From the sequence record OM386654.1: a DNA stretch of 64,000 bases. One strand, given 5' to 3'. The notes under the pieces are model-generated. The model was not told the origin of the DNA. It searched no databases and was given only the letters and a program-made list of their open reading frames with translations. The DNA comes from Escherichia phage vB_EcoM_ESCO9. Shown here in pieces: positions 417-48,498 of the stretch (its first letter is position 1; each line of letters begins with the position of its first letter). The translations under genes and the position numbers were made by a program.

Positions 417-2189
417 GTGTCTTATGTTGTAAATAAATATGGGTATAACATTGATCTAAGTCAAGAAGGACATACTGGGTGTCCTCGTTGTATGAAAGGA
501 GGGCGTGATCGATCACAAAACAATTTGATGGTATATGGCTTAGATGCCGATGAAGACCATCGAGGCGCACATTGTTTTTCTTGTGGCTTTACTATCCCTG
601 ATCAAAAATGGTTAAATGCACACGGCGAAGAAATTGAAGAGGAGGATATCTTGGGTAGTGAGTTTAATCCAGAAGTACATGATAAACTAAAAGCCAGCAC
701 TGGAACTAATCCAAAAGGTTATCGCGGTATTCGTGAAGATATCTCTAAGCCTTTCGGTGTACGTTATATGTACGATGAAGCTACTGGCGAAGTAATTTCA
801 ACACTATACCCTACAACTAAAGATTACAATATTGCTGGGTATAAACAACGTATCGATCCAAAAGATTTCTCACATCCTATCGGTGAAACAGGAAAGGATT
901 GTGATCTTTTTGGGGAGTTTAAATATCGTAACCACAGCGGTACTATTCTAATCGTTGGTGGTGAACACGATATGCTGGCTGCAACACAGATGCTAAAAGA
1001 TTATAACAAGGGTGGTAAATATCCTGTTCCTGCTGTAGTATCTGGTACTTGTGGCGAAACATCTCTGCATAAGCAGCTTCAACATCGTTATAAATTCTTA
1101 GATCAATTTAAAAAGATTGTTCTATGTATGGATAATGATGAAGCTGGACGTGCAGCAGTTGAGAAATGTGTTAAAATCTTACCACGTAATAAAGTTTACG
1201 TGATGGAACTAACGGATGTTAAAGATCCTAACCAGGCACTAGTAGAAGGAAAAATTGATCATTTTATTGATCGCTTTTTCAAAGCTAAACTGTACACACC
1301 TGCTGGTGTTTACGCTTCTAACGTACTATATGAAGCAGCCTTGGAATGCCTGGAAGCTAAAATGATCACCCTTCCTCCATTCATGCGTGTTGCTTCGAAT
1401 ATGTTAGGTGGAGGCTTGGTAGAAGAAGAAATTACTGTTATACTTGCAAAAACAAGTATCGGTAAGACACTGTTGGTTAACGAGATTACGAAACACATTA
1501 TTCTTGCACACCCAGAACATACTCTTGGTATTTTATCTTTGGAGGCAACGTATAAGAAGTATTCTCGTAACTTACTGTCTTCATTCTTGCATATCCCTCT
1601 TCACCGTAAAACGAAAGAAGAGAAGGAAAAGATTTTAAAAGATAATGAAGAAAAGATTCGTGATTTTTACGAACGAGAAGATGGAACACCACGTTTCTAT
1701 GTTTGTGATGATCGTGGAGCTAACGTAGATGTGATTAAAGAGAAGGTTCTGGAAATGATTATTTATTTCGGAGTAACCATTCTTGTTATCGACCCTTATT
1801 CTGACTTGCTTTCTGGTATGGACGTGTCACAACAAGAGGAACTTGCGACGTGGCTGAAACGCATTATGAAAGAGTATGCAATAACCATTGTTGTAATTTC
1901 ACACGTTAAAAAGTCTTCTAACAATAGTAATGAACATATTGTAGAAGATGATGCAATGGGTAGTAGCTTCCTTGCTAAAGGTGCTGGTATCACAATTGCG
2001 CTGGAGCGTGATAAACAAGCTGAAGATCCTATGGAACGTAACCGCACATATTGCTACATTCTAAAGAACCGTGAGTTCTCAGAGACTGGTGCAGCAGGTA
2101 GTTTCTTCTATGAGATTAAAACAGCTACACTTCACGATTACGATCAATACACAAGTAACCCAGAGAATATTCCTGATGGTTCTTATTAA
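417..2189 (+). CDS. DNA primase/helicase (zinc ribbon + Toprim primase fused to DnaB-like P-loop helicase)
   Basis: GTG start after GGAGAA; CPRC...CFSC zinc ribbon; Toprim-like ILIVGGEHDM...CMDNDEAG; Walker A AKTSIGKT; Walker B-like VIDPYSD. Confidence 0.85.
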   Translation: MSYVVNKYGYNIDLSQEGHTGCPRCMKGGRDRSQNNLMVYGLDADEDHRGAHCFSCGFTIPDQKWLNAHGEEIEEEDILGSEFNPEVHDKLKASTGTNPKGYRGIREDISKPFGVRYMYDEATGEVISTLYPTTKDYNIAGYKQRIDPKDFSHPIGETGKDCDLFGEFKYRNHSGTILIVGGEHDMLAATQMLKDYNKGGKYPVPAVVSGTCGETSLHKQLQHRYKFLDQFKKIVLCMDNDEAGRAAVEKCVKILPRNKVYVMELTDVKDPNQALVEGKIDHFIDRFFKAKLYTPAGVYASNVLYEAALECLEAKMITLPPFMRVASNMLGGGLVEEEITVILAKTSIGKTLLVNEITKHIILAHPEHTLGILSLEATYKKYSRNLLSSFLHIPLHRKTKEEKEKILKDNEEKIRDFYEREDGTPRFYVCDDRGANVDVIKEKVLEMIIYFGVTILVIDPYSDLLSGMDVSQQEELATWLKRIMKEYAITIVVISHVKKSSNNSNEHIVEDDAMGSSFLAKGAGITIALERDKQAEDPMERNRTYCYILKNREFSETGAAGSFFYEIKTATLHDYDQYTSNPENIPDGSY

Positions 2190-2685: not shown

Positions 2686-5265
2686 ATGGGAGCTTTTACT
2701 TTCGACATTGAAAGTAACAACTTGCTTAATGACGAAAGTGTAGATTACTTGGCAAGTCCATATCGTTTAAAAGATAGTTTTGCAATGCACTGTATTGTGT
2801 GCGAAAGTCATGATACTGGAGAGATTATTGCTTTCCATGATGGTGATAAATATCTTTTCGATGGTCGTCCGTATATTGAGACTGACGGAAAGTATGAATA
2901 CCGACTGGAGGAATATGAGCATTTAGAATATACCCATTTCCCTCTTAAAGATTTTCCTGATTTTGTAAATGGAACAGGTAAATTTAAAGGTAATTCAAAC
3001 TATAAAATTACCAAAGTAGTTGGACATAACATCATTAACTTTGACTTACTGGCAATTAAATTATTTTTTAAACTCAACTACAGTATTAAGTACAATACTT
3101 GGGGTAATAGTAACATTGAAATTTGTGATACTATGATCTTAAGTAAGACACTAAACCCTGATCGCTTCGGTGGTCATAGTCTGGCAGAGTTATCTAAGAA
3201 AGCTGGAGGGGATGTTAAAATTGATTTTAGAAAAAACATCCCTGAAACTGAAAGATTTAAAACATTTGCAGCAGATATGCTGTATTACTGTATTTACGAT
3301 AACAAAGCTAACACCGCAGTGTTCCGTTATTTGATGGAAGAGTGGGGTGATTATAATAAGTGGTCTGAACCATTTAACTTAGAACAACGTGTAGCTGATA
3401 TTATTACACGTCAAGAGCACCGTGGCTTTGCTTTCAATATGAAGCAAGCAGAAGATAATATTCGTGATCTGGATGCTCGAATGGAAGCATGTCGTTTAGA
3501 GGCAGAACCTGTGCTACCTCCTAAACCTGCTACTAAAGGTTATTTGAAATCATTCATTCCACCTAAACTACAGTTTAAAAAGAATGGTGAACCTTCAAGT
3601 AACATGATAAAGTTTGCAGAGAAACATTCTGGTGAACTTGTACAAAAAGAAGATGGTTGGTGGTTATTTGCATTAGGTAAAGAGTTTAAACTGCCTATTC
3701 CAGCAGAAGAACCTATTTGTGATCCTACAGTACCTGCTACTTTAGACGACACTACACATATTAAAAATTGGTTAGTTGGTTTAGGTTGGAGTCCATCTGA
3801 ATATAAAGATAAAGATATCACTCTTAAATCTGGCACTAAGATTAAGAAAGATGAAGCACAAATGGAGAAAGCTATTCGTGACTATGTTGATCAAACATTA
3901 GCATCTAACTTCTGCCAGGATAGATGTGATCATCTGGAGTGCACACCAGAAACTTTGGAATGGAAACTAAGAGATCGTATTGCTAAAGCTAAAGGTCGTG
4001 GTGTTAAGGTGCTTACTAACCCTTCCTTTACAAAAGGGCAAGAGAAGGATATTTGTCCTAACTTGGAAGCACTAGGTGAAAAGTTTCCTTATGCTACGCA
4101 GATTGTGCAGTATCTTACGTATAAACATCGTAGAAACTCTATTCTAGGCGGTGGTGCTGATTGGGAAGAGGATGAAGAGGATTACGATAAAGGTTATCTG
4201 GCGGCAGTAAGGGCTGATGGTCGTATACCGACTCCTGCTGCAACGTGTGATGCAGCTACGTCTCGTATGAAACATAGGTTAGTAGCAAATATCCCACGTG
4301 TAACATCTCTGTACGGATATGAAATGCGTAACTTATTTGGTGTAGAAGTTCCAAAATACTTCCAAATTGGTTATGACTTTGATTCTCTTGAGGCAAAAAT
4401 AGAATCACACTACTGTTGGCGGTACGAGCAGGAACCACATGAATATTGTAATGCTCTATTATTGGAAAAACCTAATGATGTTCATACAATGATGGCTCGA
4501 CGTATTTCTGACACTATTGGTCGTAAGTTTGAACGAAGCCCTGCTAAATCTGTTAAGTATGGTATTACTTATGGTGCTCAAGCTGCAAAAGTAGCAAAAA
4601 CTATAGGTAGTGATATGTATACAGGACAGCTTGTATACGATGCTTTCTGGGAAGCTGCAAAACCTCTTGCGCTTCTTAAAGAACGTCTGCATGATTTTTG
4701 GGTTAAAACAGGTAAGAAATACATTCTTGGTATTGATGGTAGGAAAGTACCTACACGATCTGCACACGCAATACTTAACTCTCTGTTCCAGAGTGGTGGT
4801 GTTATTTGTGCAAAAAGAGCAATGGTTATCTACGACGATCTTATCGAAGAAGAAGGATTAGCTGTTGACTTTTTTGTTGATGACTGGAAAAATAAGTCAT
4901 TCGTTCAACAAATGATTGCATATCACGATGAAGCACAGCTTGAAGTAACTCGTGATCTGGTGCATTTTAAATGGTTCTCTAAAGAATCTTTAGGTTGGAC
5001 TCAAGTTGATGATCCAGAAGAACAAAAGAAAATTGATAAAGAATGTTTGGATAAGGTTAATGCCTGGAAAGAAGAGGAAGAGAAACGTACTGGCAAGATT
5101 TGGGCTAACGTACATGAATCTCCGAAAGGTGGTTGGTTTACAGCCTACAGTCGTGCTGGAGAATTAGCATCTATCGCTGTTAATAAAGCTGGTGAGTATT
5201 ACAATCTTAATGTACCTCTCACTGCTGGTTACGATGTTGGTAGTTCATGGTCAACTTGTCACTGA
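2686..5265 (+). CDS. DNA polymerase, family A (Pol I-like) with 3'-5' exonuclease domain
   Basis: 859 aa; exo motif VGHNIINFDL; motif B-like KSVKYGITYGAQ; motif C AYHDEAQLEV; RBS AAGGAGGGAG. Confidence 0.9.
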   Translation: MGAFTFDIESNNLLNDESVDYLASPYRLKDSFAMHCIVCESHDTGEIIAFHDGDKYLFDGRPYIETDGKYEYRLEEYEHLEYTHFPLKDFPDFVNGTGKFKGNSNYKITKVVGHNIINFDLLAIKLFFKLNYSIKYNTWGNSNIEICDTMILSKTLNPDRFGGHSLAELSKKAGGDVKIDFRKNIPETERFKTFAADMLYYCIYDNKANTAVFRYLMEEWGDYNKWSEPFNLEQRVADIITRQEHRGFAFNMKQAEDNIRDLDARMEACRLEAEPVLPPKPATKGYLKSFIPPKLQFKKNGEPSSNMIKFAEKHSGELVQKEDGWWLFALGKEFKLPIPAEEPICDPTVPATLDDTTHIKNWLVGLGWSPSEYKDKDITLKSGTKIKKDEAQMEKAIRDYVDQTLASNFCQDRCDHLECTPETLEWKLRDRIAKAKGRGVKVLTNPSFTKGQEKDICPNLEALGEKFPYATQIVQYLTYKHRRNSILGGGADWEEDEEDYDKGYLAAVRADGRIPTPAATCDAATSRMKHRLVANIPRVTSLYGYEMRNLFGVEVPKYFQIGYDFDSLEAKIESHYCWRYEQEPHEYCNALLLEKPNDVHTMMARRISDTIGRKFERSPAKSVKYGITYGAQAAKVAKTIGSDMYTGQLVYDAFWEAAKPLALLKERLHDFWVKTGKKYILGIDGRKVPTRSAHAILNSLFQSGGVICAKRAMVIYDDLIEEEGLAVDFFVDDWKNKSFVQQMIAYHDEAQLEVTRDLVHFKWFSKESLGWTQVDDPEEQKKIDKECLDKVNAWKEEEEKRTGKIWANVHESPKGGWFTAYSRAGELASIAVNKAGEYYNLNVPLTAGYDVGSSWSTCH

Positions 5266-5292: not shown

Positions 5293-5889
5293 ATGCTTAC
5301 CGTATATGGTGAAGGTATTAATGATTTGGAAGGCGAGAGTACGCTACCTGGTAGTAAGAAACTAACGCCGCATTATATGAAATGGATGGCTATGTTGGGG
5401 AGGTGTTACTCCCCTTGTCAACAAGAACGTGATCCTTGTTATAATGGGGTGACGGTTTGTGAAGAATGGAAACTGTTCTCCAATTTCTACTCTTGGTTGC
5501 AAACTTGGGATAACTGGGAAAACTTAGAACTTGATAAAGATATTATAGGAGGGAGAGTTTACTCTCCCGATACCTGTCTTTTAGTAACAGGAGATCTTAA
5601 CAAGTTCTTAGCTTATAGAGTAAGTAAAAGATCTCATGGGACTATGGTAGGATGTAGTTACGAAAAAGATCGTAAAAAGTATAAAGCCCATATTCAACGT
5701 GATGGACGTGTTATAACACTGGGACGTTTTAATACTGAAATTGAAGCGCATCTTTGTTGGTTGAAGGCTAAGGCAGAACAGCTTACAAAATTCTTTGAAA
5801 CTGAAGATGAAAGAGTTGTTCCACATCTTAAAGCACTATATAATGAAATGCTTGAGCATGTAGAACAACACAAAGAGTGGACACGATAG
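5293..5889 (+). CDS. AP2-domain DNA-binding protein, possible homing-endonuclease-like gene
   Basis: C-terminal YKAHIQRDGRVITLGRFNTEIEAHLCW resembles the AP2 DNA-binding domain found in phage homing endonucleases; no catalytic motif identified by eye. Confidence 0.4.
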   Translation: MLTVYGEGINDLEGESTLPGSKKLTPHYMKWMAMLGRCYSPCQQERDPCYNGVTVCEEWKLFSNFYSWLQTWDNWENLELDKDIIGGRVYSPDTCLLVTGDLNKFLAYRVSKRSHGTMVGCSYEKDRKKYKAHIQRDGRVITLGRFNTEIEAHLCWLKAKAEQLTKFFETEDERVVPHLKALYNEMLEHVEQHKEWTR

Positions 5890-5897
5890 GAGAAAAT

Positions 5898-6491
5898 ATG
5901 AATATTGAAGATCAAAAAGTACGAGCTTTAGAAGTATTACGTATGTGCCAACTGGTAGATCCGTTTGCAATTGTAGCTGGCGGCGCTGTACGTGACTGGC
6001 GATTAGAGAAACCTGCGCAAGATATTGACATTTACTTGCGTATGCCTAACCACAATACACTCGTGCTAGTAGAGAAGTTTTTGATGTTGGGTGTTGGTGC
6101 ACGTAATGTTAAACAACTTACTAAGCAAACAGAACACACTTATGCCGAACTACCACATTTGAAATGGGTATTTGAAGCATACTATAAAGACCTTAAGTTT
6201 AACTTTATGATCATGGAAGAAGGTGTACGCAGTGAAATCGTATGGAACTTTGATGTAGCTATTTGCCTGTGTTACTGGGATGGTCAAAATTATGTATATC
6301 ATCCAGATTTTGAATTTGCACTGAAAACTAATATTTGTACTATTAATCACCGCTACACAGGTAAAGAAGCACACGTCCGTAAAATGGCAGAACGTTTCCC
6401 TATGTTCCGCTTTGTAAAAGACGTTTTCATTCCCAAAGAACCAGAAGTACGTACACTGGATTCATTTAACAACGAAGAATTTAAGATTTAA
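5898..6491 (+). CDS. hypothetical protein
   Basis: ATG at 5898 preceded by AGGAG; track start at 5877 has no RBS and overlaps the upstream gene. Confidence 0.5.
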   Translation: MNIEDQKVRALEVLRMCQLVDPFAIVAGGAVRDWRLEKPAQDIDIYLRMPNHNTLVLVEKFLMLGVGARNVKQLTKQTEHTYAELPHLKWVFEAYYKDLKFNFMIMEEGVRSEIVWNFDVAICLCYWDGQNYVYHPDFEFALKTNICTINHRYTGKEAHVRKMAERFPMFRFVKDVFIPKEPEVRTLDSFNNEEFKI

Positions 6492-47889: not shown

Positions 47890-47979
47890 TGGAGGAAGAT
47901 AATGGAGTCGAACCATCACCGTATCACTACAATGGGCCAGGGTTCAAACCTGGTTGCGCACCGCTGCGCCCTACCTTCC
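47890..47979 (-). tRNA. tRNA-Ser (anticodon TGA), long variable arm
   Basis: 90 nt; anticodon arm CCAGG-UUUGAAC-CCUGG; T-arm GAUGG-UUCGACU-CCAUU; acceptor GGAAGGU/AUCUUCC with one G.U; CCA encoded. Confidence 0.65.
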
Positions 47980-48042: not shown

Positions 48043-48124
48043 TGGCCGGGGTGACAGGATTCGAACCTGCATACTCCAATTACTCGGTTAACGCCTGATT
48101 AGAAGTCAGGTGAGATACACCCCG
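48043..48124 (-). tRNA. atypical tRNA-like (anticodon arm consistent with Arg-TCT; no recognisable D-arm)
   Basis: Acceptor CGGGGUG/CACCCCG, T-arm GCAGG-UUCGAAU-CCUGU, CCA, hairpin CCUGA-CUUCUAA-UCAGG; only 7 nt between acceptor and that hairpin, 23 nt after it. Confidence 0.4.
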
Positions 48125-48197
48125 TTTTTATAATGACTATAACAAAAAACTAAGTAAATGTCAAGATATTTTTTACTAAAATTACTATTTAAATTGA

Positions 48198-48303
48198 AGC
48201 CTAGTTATGGAATCGAACCATATTTCGTATTTAGTTAGACAAAGCGGTCTAACATATTTTTCAGGCTTTGATGGCCTCGGAATTACCAAATACCCTACTA
48301 GGC
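48198..48303 (-). tRNA. atypical 106-nt tRNA-like element; candidate anticodon loop CAUCAAA (UCA) in my fold
   Basis: Perfect 7-bp acceptor GCCUAGU/ACUAGGC; T-arm UAUGG-UUCGAUU-CCAUA; D-region GGUAUU-UGGU-AAUUCC; hairpin AGGC-CAUCAAA-GCCU; extra perfect 7-bp hairpin GUUAGAC-CGCUUU-GUCUAAC; no CCA encoded. Confidence 0.4.
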
Positions 48304-48305
48304 GT

Positions 48306-48391
48306 TGGTGCAAGTGGAGGGATTCGAACCCTCAATCATTTAAGCGTTGCGTTTTAAGCACAATGTGTATCACCAATTCCACCACACTTGC
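48306..48391 (-). tRNA. tRNA-Leu (anticodon TAA), long variable arm
   Basis: 86 nt; D-stem GUG/CAC; anticodon arm UUGUG-CUUAAAA-CGCAA; T-arm GAGGG-UUCGAAU-CCCUC; CCA encoded. Confidence 0.7.
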
Positions 48392-48422: not shown

Positions 48423-48498
48423 TGGTGGTTCCCCAGGGTTACAATCCCTGCCCTCGACACTTATGAGGTGTGCGCTCTCGTCAGTGAGCTATGGAACC
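48423..48498 (-). tRNA. tRNA-Met (anticodon CAT), second copy, non-canonical T-loop
   Basis: Acceptor GGUUCCA/GGGAACC; D-arm GCUC/GAGC; anticodon loop CUCAUAA; T-arm CAGGG-AUUGUAA-CCCUG; CCA encoded. Confidence 0.55.

Follow-up and report, generated by a model that had tools for sequence, protein, structure and literature searches.

Does a UCA anticodon-like loop in a phage tRNA cluster mean that the phage reads the stop codon UGA? The question is raised by a 106-nucleotide (nt) element on the minus strand of a 64,000-nt stretch of Escherichia phage vB_EcoM_ESCO9 (sequence record OM386654.1), here called the window. The phage is a phi92-like E. coli myovirus (Justusliebigvirus, Stephanstirmvirinae) whose tRNA cluster also lies on the minus strand. 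An initial annotation of the window described the element as one tRNA-shaped RNA and considered a suppressor-like or selenocysteine (Sec)-like tRNA. We found that the element belongs to a conserved family, that its UCA loop is a local variant, and that a glycine-type tRNA mimic is the reading we tentatively favour.

An oversized tRNA-shaped RNA gene

Read from 48303 to 48198 on the minus strand, the element is GCCUAGU-AG-GGUAUU-UGGU-AAUUCC-G-AGGC-CAUCAAA-GCCU-G-AAAAAUAU-GUUAGAC-CGCUUU-GUCUAAC-UAAAUACGAAA-UAUGG-UUCGAUU-CCAUA-ACUAGGC-U, followed by UCA. The acceptor stem, the T-arm, the UCA hairpin and the extra 7-base-pair (bp) hairpin of the initial annotation are all present. Its 6-bp D-stem with a 4-nt loop is right as architecture; in the window copy this arm has five Watson-Crick pairs and one U.U, whereas the stem is a perfect 6 bp in most homologs. 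A 7-bp acceptor stem, a 5-bp T-stem, a T-loop of the form UUCRANY and a D-loop GG that forms the elbow make up the four-arm cloverleaf. In place of the canonical U8/A14, 5-bp anticodon stem and U33, the element has A8 (followed by G9, 48296-48295, ahead of the D-arm), U14, a 4-bp stem and A33, all invariant in the subgroup of homologs to which the window copy belongs (subgroup 1). UCA lies at 48271-48269 and A33 at 48272, and the anticodon arm is bracketed by an invariant G.G (48278 and 48262). The extra hairpin, a perfect 7 bp in the window copy, is set apart from the core by single strands of 8 and 11 nt. The trailer, UCA in the window copy, is CCC in the L011/L020 variant. CCA is encoded by the other subgroup 1 and 2 copies, as it is by all 15 ordinary tRNAs of the window cluster. 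On the plus strand, the extra hairpin (48234-48253) followed by AUAUUUUUCA scores as an intrinsic-terminator-like site, and the invariant GAAAA flank could also be read there as a U-run; no convergent plus-strand gene is evident.

ARAGORN and Rfam (gathering threshold and E<=10) made no call at 48198-48303 in the window. They do not resolve the region into a standard tRNA plus spacer, and the description as a single RNA of about 106 nt stands. A relative of subgroup 3 passes RF00005 with 37.1 bits (cut-off 29) and is reported by ARAGORN as "tRNA-???". Taken alone, the window copy folds only moderately better than its shuffles (z = -2.7; 3 of 200 shuffles were as good). The comparative data are the decisive evidence.

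When 13 distinct homologs were aligned with MAFFT, 95.8% of the cells were paired, compared with 30-52% in slid controls, and 11 of the 24 pairs showed double changes; RNAalifold recovered the same cloverleaf independently. With 27 distinct sequences, 99.5% of the cells were paired against 32-50% in slid controls. This larger alignment was fitted to a covariance model, and the 13-sequence MAFFT result is independent of the model. The acceptor stem is fully paired in all homologs, with compensatory changes at pairs 3-6. Covariation also involves D-stem pairs 11:24, 12:23 and 13:22, the first and fourth pairs of the anticodon stem and the fifth T-stem pair (U-A to G-C). The geometry is 7/5; position 8 lies opposite A or C, with which it forms no pair. 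The tertiary elbow swaps as well: between G19, the third D-loop base, and C56 in the T-loop, the 27 sequences have 20 G:C and 7 U:A combinations and none that is broken. In other lineages, the cloverleaf with the extra hairpin is the minimum-free-energy fold (z = -3.1 to -4.2). The extra hairpin differs in sequence and length from lineage to lineage with compensatory changes (L025 vs. L014), while its flanks GAAAA and AAUAC are invariant and are conserved as sequence, not as helix. Conserved pairing of the two flanks with each other, or of AAUAC with the D-strand, was rejected, as such pairings are lineage-specific only. The comparison with orthologous loci that the initial annotation had called for hence backs the cloverleaf by covariation. 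We regard it as confirmed, on comparative sequence grounds, that the element is a real, selected gene for an oversized, non-standard tRNA-shaped RNA. The small open reading frames (ORFs) annotated over it (cardinal, Mydo, SSE-121 and others) are ruled out by the RNA-type compensatory substitutions.

Homologs occur in about 200 or more phage genomes of the Vequintavirinae, the phi92-like Justusliebigvirus and one N4-like phage. The carriers comprise about 30 Justusliebigvirus, 124 rV5-like and about 60 Seunavirus, Mydovirus and Henunavirus records besides the N4-like phage. The first homologs (about 70% identity) came from Erwinia phages, among them Hena1, where the element is annotated tRNA-sup(tca), and from the N4-like Salmonella phage. 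The Vequintavirinae carriers include Seunavirus (PVP-SE1, SSE-121, GAP31 and Cronobacter phages), Mydovirus (Klebsiella, Raoultella and Proteus phages), 4MG and rV5-like phages, and their copies reach 75-102 bits under a covariance model derived from the initial 13 sequences. Further homologs lie in uncultivated viral and metagenomic contigs. In most records, the element is unannotated or overlaid with small hypothetical ORFs; a few label it tRNA-TERM, tRNA-Lys or tRNA-OTHER. A blastn search found no copy in 5,426 E. coli genomes, and a scan with a pattern specific to subgroup 1 found none in 185,579 bacterial genomes. The bacterial-genome and several viral hits of the pattern scans are chance matches in coding DNA. 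Exact-pattern scans based on the UCA loop reach subgroup 1 only and wrongly suggest an invariant loop; such scans did not find the U33 version (CTTCAAA). An anticodon-free pattern gave at least 120 loci, all of which the covariance model rejected as family members.

Within the window's genus, the element is 98-100% conserved in 30 genomes, with changes only in the hairpin loop and the trailer. Only 30 of 55 close relatives carry the full region, and about 25, including phi92 and EC_OE_11, are without the element. phi92 lacks about 125 nt, and in EC_OE_11 the segment between the CTAG microhomologies in both acceptor strands is cleanly deleted. Judged from these genomes, the deletions are two independent losses and the element is dispensable.

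Several observations were made beside this survey. Records MG065656 (C3), MG065682 (A112b) and about 16 more are labelled "Campylobacter phage" with C. jejuni as host, yet in this region they are 97-99% identical to phi92-like or rV5-like phages of E. coli, and the host labels look doubtful. The metagenomic phage contig L026, which also carries the element, has at 2791-2865 a 75-nt tRNA that ARAGORN reports with a CUA (amber) anticodon as "tRNA-Pyl" (Rfam 61.9 bits). In the CUA register its anticodon stem pairs poorly, and UCU with an 8-nt loop is a possible alternative.

Literature searches on Hena1, tRNA-Sup-TCA, phage tRNA-like RNAs and U33/A33 gave no description of this tRNA-like family. 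Its kind is already known from the non-canonical Sec-like tRNAs, phage ones included; the 7/5 family is distinct and mostly unannotated. What sets it apart is the short anticodon stem, the oversized variable region with invariant GAAAA/AAUAC flanks and the hypervariable loop. The T4 species 1 and 2 RNAs (rnaC and rnaD) resemble the element as small stable RNAs of unknown function that end a phage tRNA cluster and abut a tRNA. T4 rnaC (L034 1909-2047) ends in AAAAAUAU, a 10-bp hairpin, UAAUAA, a canonical T-arm and the terminal stem, which loosely echoes the 3' half of the element, but its 5' half consists of a single long hairpin where the element has its D and anticodon arms. Homology with rnaC or rnaD was rejected, since covariance model R1 finds only ordinary T4 tRNAs, at 19-22 bits. 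A tmRNA was also rejected: ARAGORN made no tmRNA call, pair 3:70 is C:G and not G:U, and there is no conserved ORF.

Anticodon loop variation and stop-codon use

We compared what the family keeps with what it changes. Invariant or nearly so throughout are G1:C72, C2:G71 (G1:C72 strictly, C2:G71 nearly), A8, the 6-bp D-stem with its tetraloop, the T-arm, the G.G bracketing the 4-bp anticodon stem and the GAAAA and AAUAC single strands. The anticodon loop, in contrast, is invariant within subgroup 1 while the stems vary, and it differs between subgroups. Subgroup 1 (the window copy, Henunavirus, UTK0002 and two metagenomic lineages) has the 7-nt loop CAUCAAA with A33 and UCA, together with U73 and an encoded CCA except in the window's genus. 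Subgroup 2 (Seunavirus, Mydovirus and 4MG) has AGGUC-CAUCCA-GACCU, which can be drawn as 5 bp with 6 nt or as 4 bp with 8 nt, followed by U73-CCA. Its loop variants are CCUCCA, CCACCA, CCGCCA, CAGCCA and CCUCAA, and its anticodons are mostly UCC, ACC or GCC. Subgroup 3 (rV5-like) has UUUUUAA with A73 or UUUAUAA with U73, U33, and no encoded CCA.

The change is concentrated in a few positions. Outside the arm there is no difference among FENT2, NDO71 and K54_rec1, which have AU, CA and CG at positions 33-34. KE22 and NINP13076 differ at one site beyond the arm and, within it, at positions 33 and 36, indicating that UCC changed to UCA at least twice. C36 occurs in five of the six subgroup-2 loop types, and UCA is found only in subgroup 1 and in one subgroup-2 copy. 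Across subgroups 1 and 2, position 34 varies freely among U, A and G, no copy departs from C35, C36 has given way to A on two occasions, and U73, G1:C72 and C2:G71 are fixed apart from one U2.G71. As far as sequence comparison can tell, the UCA loop is one local form of a loop that evolves fast, and it provides no evidence of stop-codon recoding or of selenocysteine.

The initial annotation had proposed to count TGA codons as a sign of recoding, and the count gave no such sign. The 73 long ORFs of the window end in TAA (54), TGA (10) or TAG (9), and a scan of the whole window found no long ORF split by TGA. A first count placed the backup stop a median of 3 codons after TGA. In a cleaner ORF set, the median was 6 codons after TGA (n=10) vs. 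10 (TAA) and 8, and the apparent excess is not significant. The single read-through candidate (2686-5265 plus 207 codons) was rejected: it consists of a DNA polymerase and then a separate gene with an ATG and a Shine-Dalgarno sequence of its own. The family-A-like DNA polymerase ORF 2686-5265 (+) ends in TGA, and the same-frame gene 5293-5889 (+), of 198 amino acids (aa) and with its own ribosome-binding site, has no Pfam hit; it could be a homing-endonuclease-type insertion beside the polymerase. Recoded phages (crAss-like phages and Lak megaphages) likewise encode tRNA genes with stop-complementary anticodons, but they combine many in-frame reassigned stops with canonical suppressors, whereas the window phage shows none, terminates genes with TGA and can dispense with the gene. 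A recoding suppressor of a stop-reassigned phage was rejected on the lack of in-frame reassigned TGA codons in the 64-kb window and on the natural deletions in phi92 and EC_OE_11.

A proposed glycine-type tRNA mimic and its rivals

With about as much doubt as belief, we favour the reading that the element would be a processed, glycine-type, chargeable tRNA mimic of a phage-only family, in which the window copy would be a C36-to-A (UCC to UCA) variant. The glycine-type assignment is made because conservation in the loop and acceptor ranks like the identity hierarchy of E. coli glycyl-tRNA synthetase (GlyRS). This enzyme barely contacts G34; mutants of C35 lose 105-1500-fold and those of C36 only 21-41-fold, and U73 and the first two base pairs are important (PMC9908026). 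The identity set U73, G1:C72, C2:G71 and C35 is present in subgroups 1 and 2. The element further resembles bacterial tRNA-Gly(UCC) in C36 where this is kept, in a loop near the CUUCCAA of glyT and in the T-loop UUCGAUU. In E. coli genetics, a single UCC-to-UCA substitution is known to turn glycine tRNAs into UGA readers (the glyT-derived suppressors). The element departs from tRNA-Gly(UCC) in being about 35 nt longer, in its Sec-like D-arm, in having A33, a 4-bp stem and A8/U14 in place of U8/A14, in lacking G3:C70 and, in most relatives, in loops of other than 7 nt. A normal tRNA-Gly(UCC) is also encoded by the window phage (46607-46681). The rV5-like copies with UUU carry A73, and we take UUU and A73 to be identity elements of LysRS; anticodon and discriminator thus appear to change together, as expected if aminoacylation is required.

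The anatomy suggests how such a mimic would be made. It would be transcribed at the end of a tRNA-Met/tRNA-Leu unit, RNase P would cut its 5' end 2 nt past the CCA of tRNA-Leu, and its 3' end would be trimmed and then completed by a CCA-adding enzyme. The body would keep the tRNA fold and acceptor-end recognition through the 7/5 helix, the D/T elbow, G1:C72, C2:G71 and U73. Efficient decoding is unlikely because of A33, the 4-bp stem and the 6- or 8-nt loops of most relatives. If the element enters the ribosome at all, the outcome would probably be low-level read-through of UGA to glycine, making it a weak UGA reader at most. The conserved role of the family would be independent of UGA reading; it more likely lies in being recognised as a tRNA, perhaps tRNA-Gly, by factors of the host or the phage, with service as a spare or decoy in tRNA conflicts as one example. 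The initial annotation took A33 as an argument against a standard decoding tRNA. A33 is indeed a real and conserved oddity, although by itself it does not exclude decoding, since it occurs in natural mistranslating tRNAs (PMC11415595). These tRNAs (tRNA-ProX) share with the element an A33 in an otherwise tRNA-like loop, and they and a Staphylococcus tRNA-Gly reported as non-proteinogenic share with it the idea of a chargeable tRNA kept partly or wholly from normal decoding (PMC11415595, PMC4574755). Both differ from the element in having unrelated sequences and normal size and arms, and they are bacterial, not phage-borne. Some non-canonical Sec-like tRNAs are charged but unused in translation (PMC5389517).

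A number of points weigh against a glycine-type mimic. The GlyRS identity elements C36 and G3:C70 are absent from the window copy, which has A36 and C3:G70, and the 3:70 pair is variable in the family. By analogy with the E. coli enzyme, A36 would be expected to lower charging by GlyRS. The long extra arm and U73 could instead make the element a SerRS substrate (PMC5389517). One rV5-like copy with UAU and U73 fits no simple identity rule, the element was independently deleted in phi92 and EC_OE_11, and the loss of the encoded CCA in the window copy and its sister variant could reflect relaxed selection in the genus. Finally, no host factor targeting tRNA-Gly is tied to the carrier phages.

We weighed other readings against the same data. 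The element could be an attenuated opal suppressor that is charged, is delivered to the ribosome and reads UGA at a low level, its efficiency throttled by A33 and the short stem; the effect would be extended phage or host proteins or competition with RF2. This agrees with the 7-nt loop, whose C32, UCA, A37 and A38 are invariant in 13 distinct subgroup-1 sequences from five lineages, with the second origin of UCA in NINP13076, with the low share of TGA among the stops of the window (10/73) and with the name chosen by the annotators of Hena1. Natural A33 and G33 tRNAs decode, and G33 is thought to limit mistranslation (PMC11415595). However, most loops of the family are unable to read UGA or have 6 or 8 nt, the stem is of 4 bp, the U-turn nucleotide U33 is missing, TGA still serves as a stop and interrupts no gene, backup stops are not in significant excess, and about 25 of the 55 close relatives do without the element. 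We consider this suppressor unlikely. The initial annotation had considered a suppressor-like tRNA; suppression as the reason for the gene's existence is not supported, given the restriction of UCA to one subgroup and one further copy, the normal use of TGA and the losses among close relatives. The chance of a selenocysteine tRNA, or of a mimic feeding the SelA/SelB pathway, is close to nil. The element shares with tRNA-Sec (selC, RF01852) the D-arm of 6 bp with a tetraloop, the long extra arm and, in subgroup 1, UCA with A37 and A38; its loop differs from the consensus CUUCAAA at position 33 only, and tRNA-Sec is the best-scoring Rfam model for relatives of subgroups 1 and 2. The Sec reading is nevertheless refuted on its defining features, as the acceptor/T geometry is 7/5 and not the 13-bp 8/5 of bacteria, the discriminator is U73 and not G73, the anticodon stem has 4 bp and not 6 bp, position 33 is A, UCA is not conserved in the family, and the Rfam model gives no match in the window and 23-31 bits in the relatives against a cut-off of 47. 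The opal or Sec interpretation holds only as a description of the subgroup-1 loop. An unrelated viral contig, L061, carries at 533-629 (minus) a Sec-like tRNA of 97 nt whose loop is the canonical CUUCAAA, whose D-arm has a tetraloop and whose variable arm (V-arm) is long; the family model matches it weakly (29.9 bits).

If it stays uncharged, the element could instead be a decoy or sponge that engages a host factor sensing anticodon loops, for instance an anticodon nuclease or some other defence or toxin directed at tRNAs; the loop would then be an arms-race surface. Positions 33 and 34 are a mutational hot-spot on identical backbones, and known anticodon nucleases cut at these very positions. 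The element is also accessory and often lost, as expected of a counter-defence gene. Phage tRNAs are reported to evade or neutralise tRNA-targeting defences through anticodon-loop changes (PMC10264068, PMC11464382, PMC11555353). There is, however, no known enterobacterial nuclease against UCC or UCA loops and no linked protein partner, and recognition by a synthetase accounts better for the constancy of C35, U73 and the first two acceptor pairs, so we give an uncharged decoy a low probability. A serine-accepting, allo-tRNA-like paralog of the phage (8/4) tRNA-Ser(UGA) would be read by SerRS through its extra arm and U73, with the anticodon irrelevant. The allo-tRNAs, which are Sec-like non-canonical tRNAs (Mukai et al. 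2017, PMC5389517), share with the element a long-stem tetraloop D-arm, an extra arm, U73 or G73 and diverse anticodons including stop-reading ones; phage tRNA clusters are a known habitat of theirs, some members are folded and even charged yet unused in translation, and SerRS accepts G73 or U73 with a long V-arm (PMC5389517). The nearby tRNA-Ser(UGA) of the window folds 8/4 and has the same D-arm type, U73 and a near-identical T-arm. The element differs from allo-tRNAs in its 7/5 geometry (not 8/4 or 9/3), its shorter (4 bp) anticodon stem, a hairpin between invariant GAAAA/AAUAC strands, a conservation of the Gly/Lys type rather than Ser/Ala, and its hosts, which are Enterobacterales phages. 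SerRS reads a rigidly oriented V-arm, and the extra hairpin on its 8- and 11-nt single strands is unlike one. An anticodon-blind synthetase would also leave unexplained the fixed C35 beside a free position 34 and the joining of A73 to UUU. Charging with serine is improbable on this evidence. Still more so is a decaying, functionless pseudo-tRNA in the window's genus. Its encoded CCA was lost in two ways (UCA and CCC), its D-stem has the U.U mismatch and many relatives have deleted it, but 30 genomes keep it at 98-100% with changes confined to the hairpin loop and trailer and with all helices intact, and the family persists, with compensatory changes, in distant phage groups.

Two features, the mutational hot-spot at positions 33-34 and the accessory occurrence of the element, also bear on the chargeable mimic that we favour, as they suggest conflict with host factors recognising tRNA anticodon loops. 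A bolder proposal, possible but rather doubtful, is that the Vequintavirinae and the phi92-like phages possess a specialised class of tRNA mimics that can be charged but are largely non-decoding. Positions 33, 34 and 36 of their loop would be under diversifying selection against tRNA-directed immunity or toxins of the host, and their identity would be switched by coupled changes of anticodon and discriminator (Gly-type NCC/U73, opal UCA/U73 and Lys-type UUU/A73), the window copy being the opal morph.

Genomic neighbourhood and wider meaning

The coordinates of the element, its parts and its neighbours are collected in Table 1.

Table 1. The element and neighbouring features in the window.
Feature	Coordinates	Strand	Description
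tRNA-like RNA gene	48198-48303	minus	106 nt, from G1 (48303) to discriminator U73 (48198); 111.7 bits with covariance model R1, plus covariation
Acceptor stem, 5' strand GCCUAGU	48297-48303	minus	pairs with 48199-48205 (ACUAGGC), perfect 7 bp
D-arm	48279-48294	minus	6-bp stem and tetraloop UGGU, tRNA-Sec/allo-tRNA type
Anticodon-like arm	48263-48277	minus	4-bp stem AGGC/GCCU and 7-nt loop CAUCAAA (48273-48267)
Oversized variable region	48223-48262	minus	G-AAAA(A) (48262-48257), hairpin (48253-48234), 3' flank with AAUAC (48231-48227)
T-arm UAUGG-UUCGAUU-CCAUA	48206-48222	minus	5 bp, canonical T-loop
3' trailer	48195-48197	minus	UCA instead of encoded CCA (from sequence)
tRNA-Leu(UAA)	48306-48391	minus	well formed, upstream; encoded CCA ends 2 nt before the element
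tRNA-Met	48423-48498	minus	precedes tRNA-Leu(UAA)
Sigma-70-type promoter TTGACA-17-TATAGT	48136-48164	minus	11/12 matches, TG extension; directly downstream of the element
Aberrant tRNA-like gene	48046-48124	minus	downstream neighbour; Rfam 38.6 bits, missed by ARAGORN; own strong promoter (48164-48136)
"tRNA-Ser(UGA)"	47890-47979	minus	8-bp acceptor stem, 4-bp T-stem, 5-bp D-stem and tetraloop, long V-arm, U73

In every lineage, the element lies 2-5 nt behind another tRNA, and in the window tRNA-Met, tRNA-Leu and the element probably form one co-transcription unit. The element is the last gene of its unit, because the strong promoter behind it drives the next tRNA-like gene. The initial annotation placed it between two well-formed tRNAs, which is correct for the upstream tRNA-Leu(UAA); the downstream gene (48124-48046) is aberrant, is without a D-arm and is recognised by Rfam only. 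That gene has an acceptor stem, a T-arm and a UCU anticodon arm with only 4 nt at the place of the D-arm, and it encodes CCA. Its long variable region contains the D-loop-like sequence AGUAAUUGG. Homologs of 82-86% identity occur in Felixounavirus, Klebsiella phages and jumbo phages, and tRNA-OTHER or tRNA-Undet annotations in relatives refer to this gene and not to the element. For the tRNA-Ser(UGA) gene, the tRNA-Sec model scores best (35 bits). The gene matches the phage (8/4) tRNA-Ser of PMC5389517 and is marked as a pseudogene in phi92.

At a distance from the cluster, a 204-aa ORF (5877-6491, +) with a GGAVRD...DIDI motif matches PHROG 1614 "nucleotidyltransferase" (E=1e-34). The head domain of Pfam PolyA_pol is below threshold (19 bits vs. 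23), and there is a faint PDB likeness to CCA-adding enzymes. The product may be a minimal tRNA nucleotidyltransferase of relevance to an element that encodes no CCA.

Phage tRNA genes are now partly understood as weapons against tRNA-cleaving host defences, and this element is a conserved member of such clusters that standard annotation has missed or mislabelled. The approximately 200 or more carrier genomes belong to phages employed against E. coli, Salmonella, Klebsiella, Cronobacter and Erwinia, and the element joins a strictly kept tRNA fold to an anticodon arm that is structurally abnormal and changes rapidly. A single UCA loop is not evidence of recoding, and the locus serves as a warning in this respect. 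It also offers a tractable system for asking whether phages deploy charged, non-decoding mimics, how tRNA identity shifts in nature and whether a low-level UGA reader acts during infection, with the natural deletion variants phi92 and EC_OE_11 as ready-made controls.

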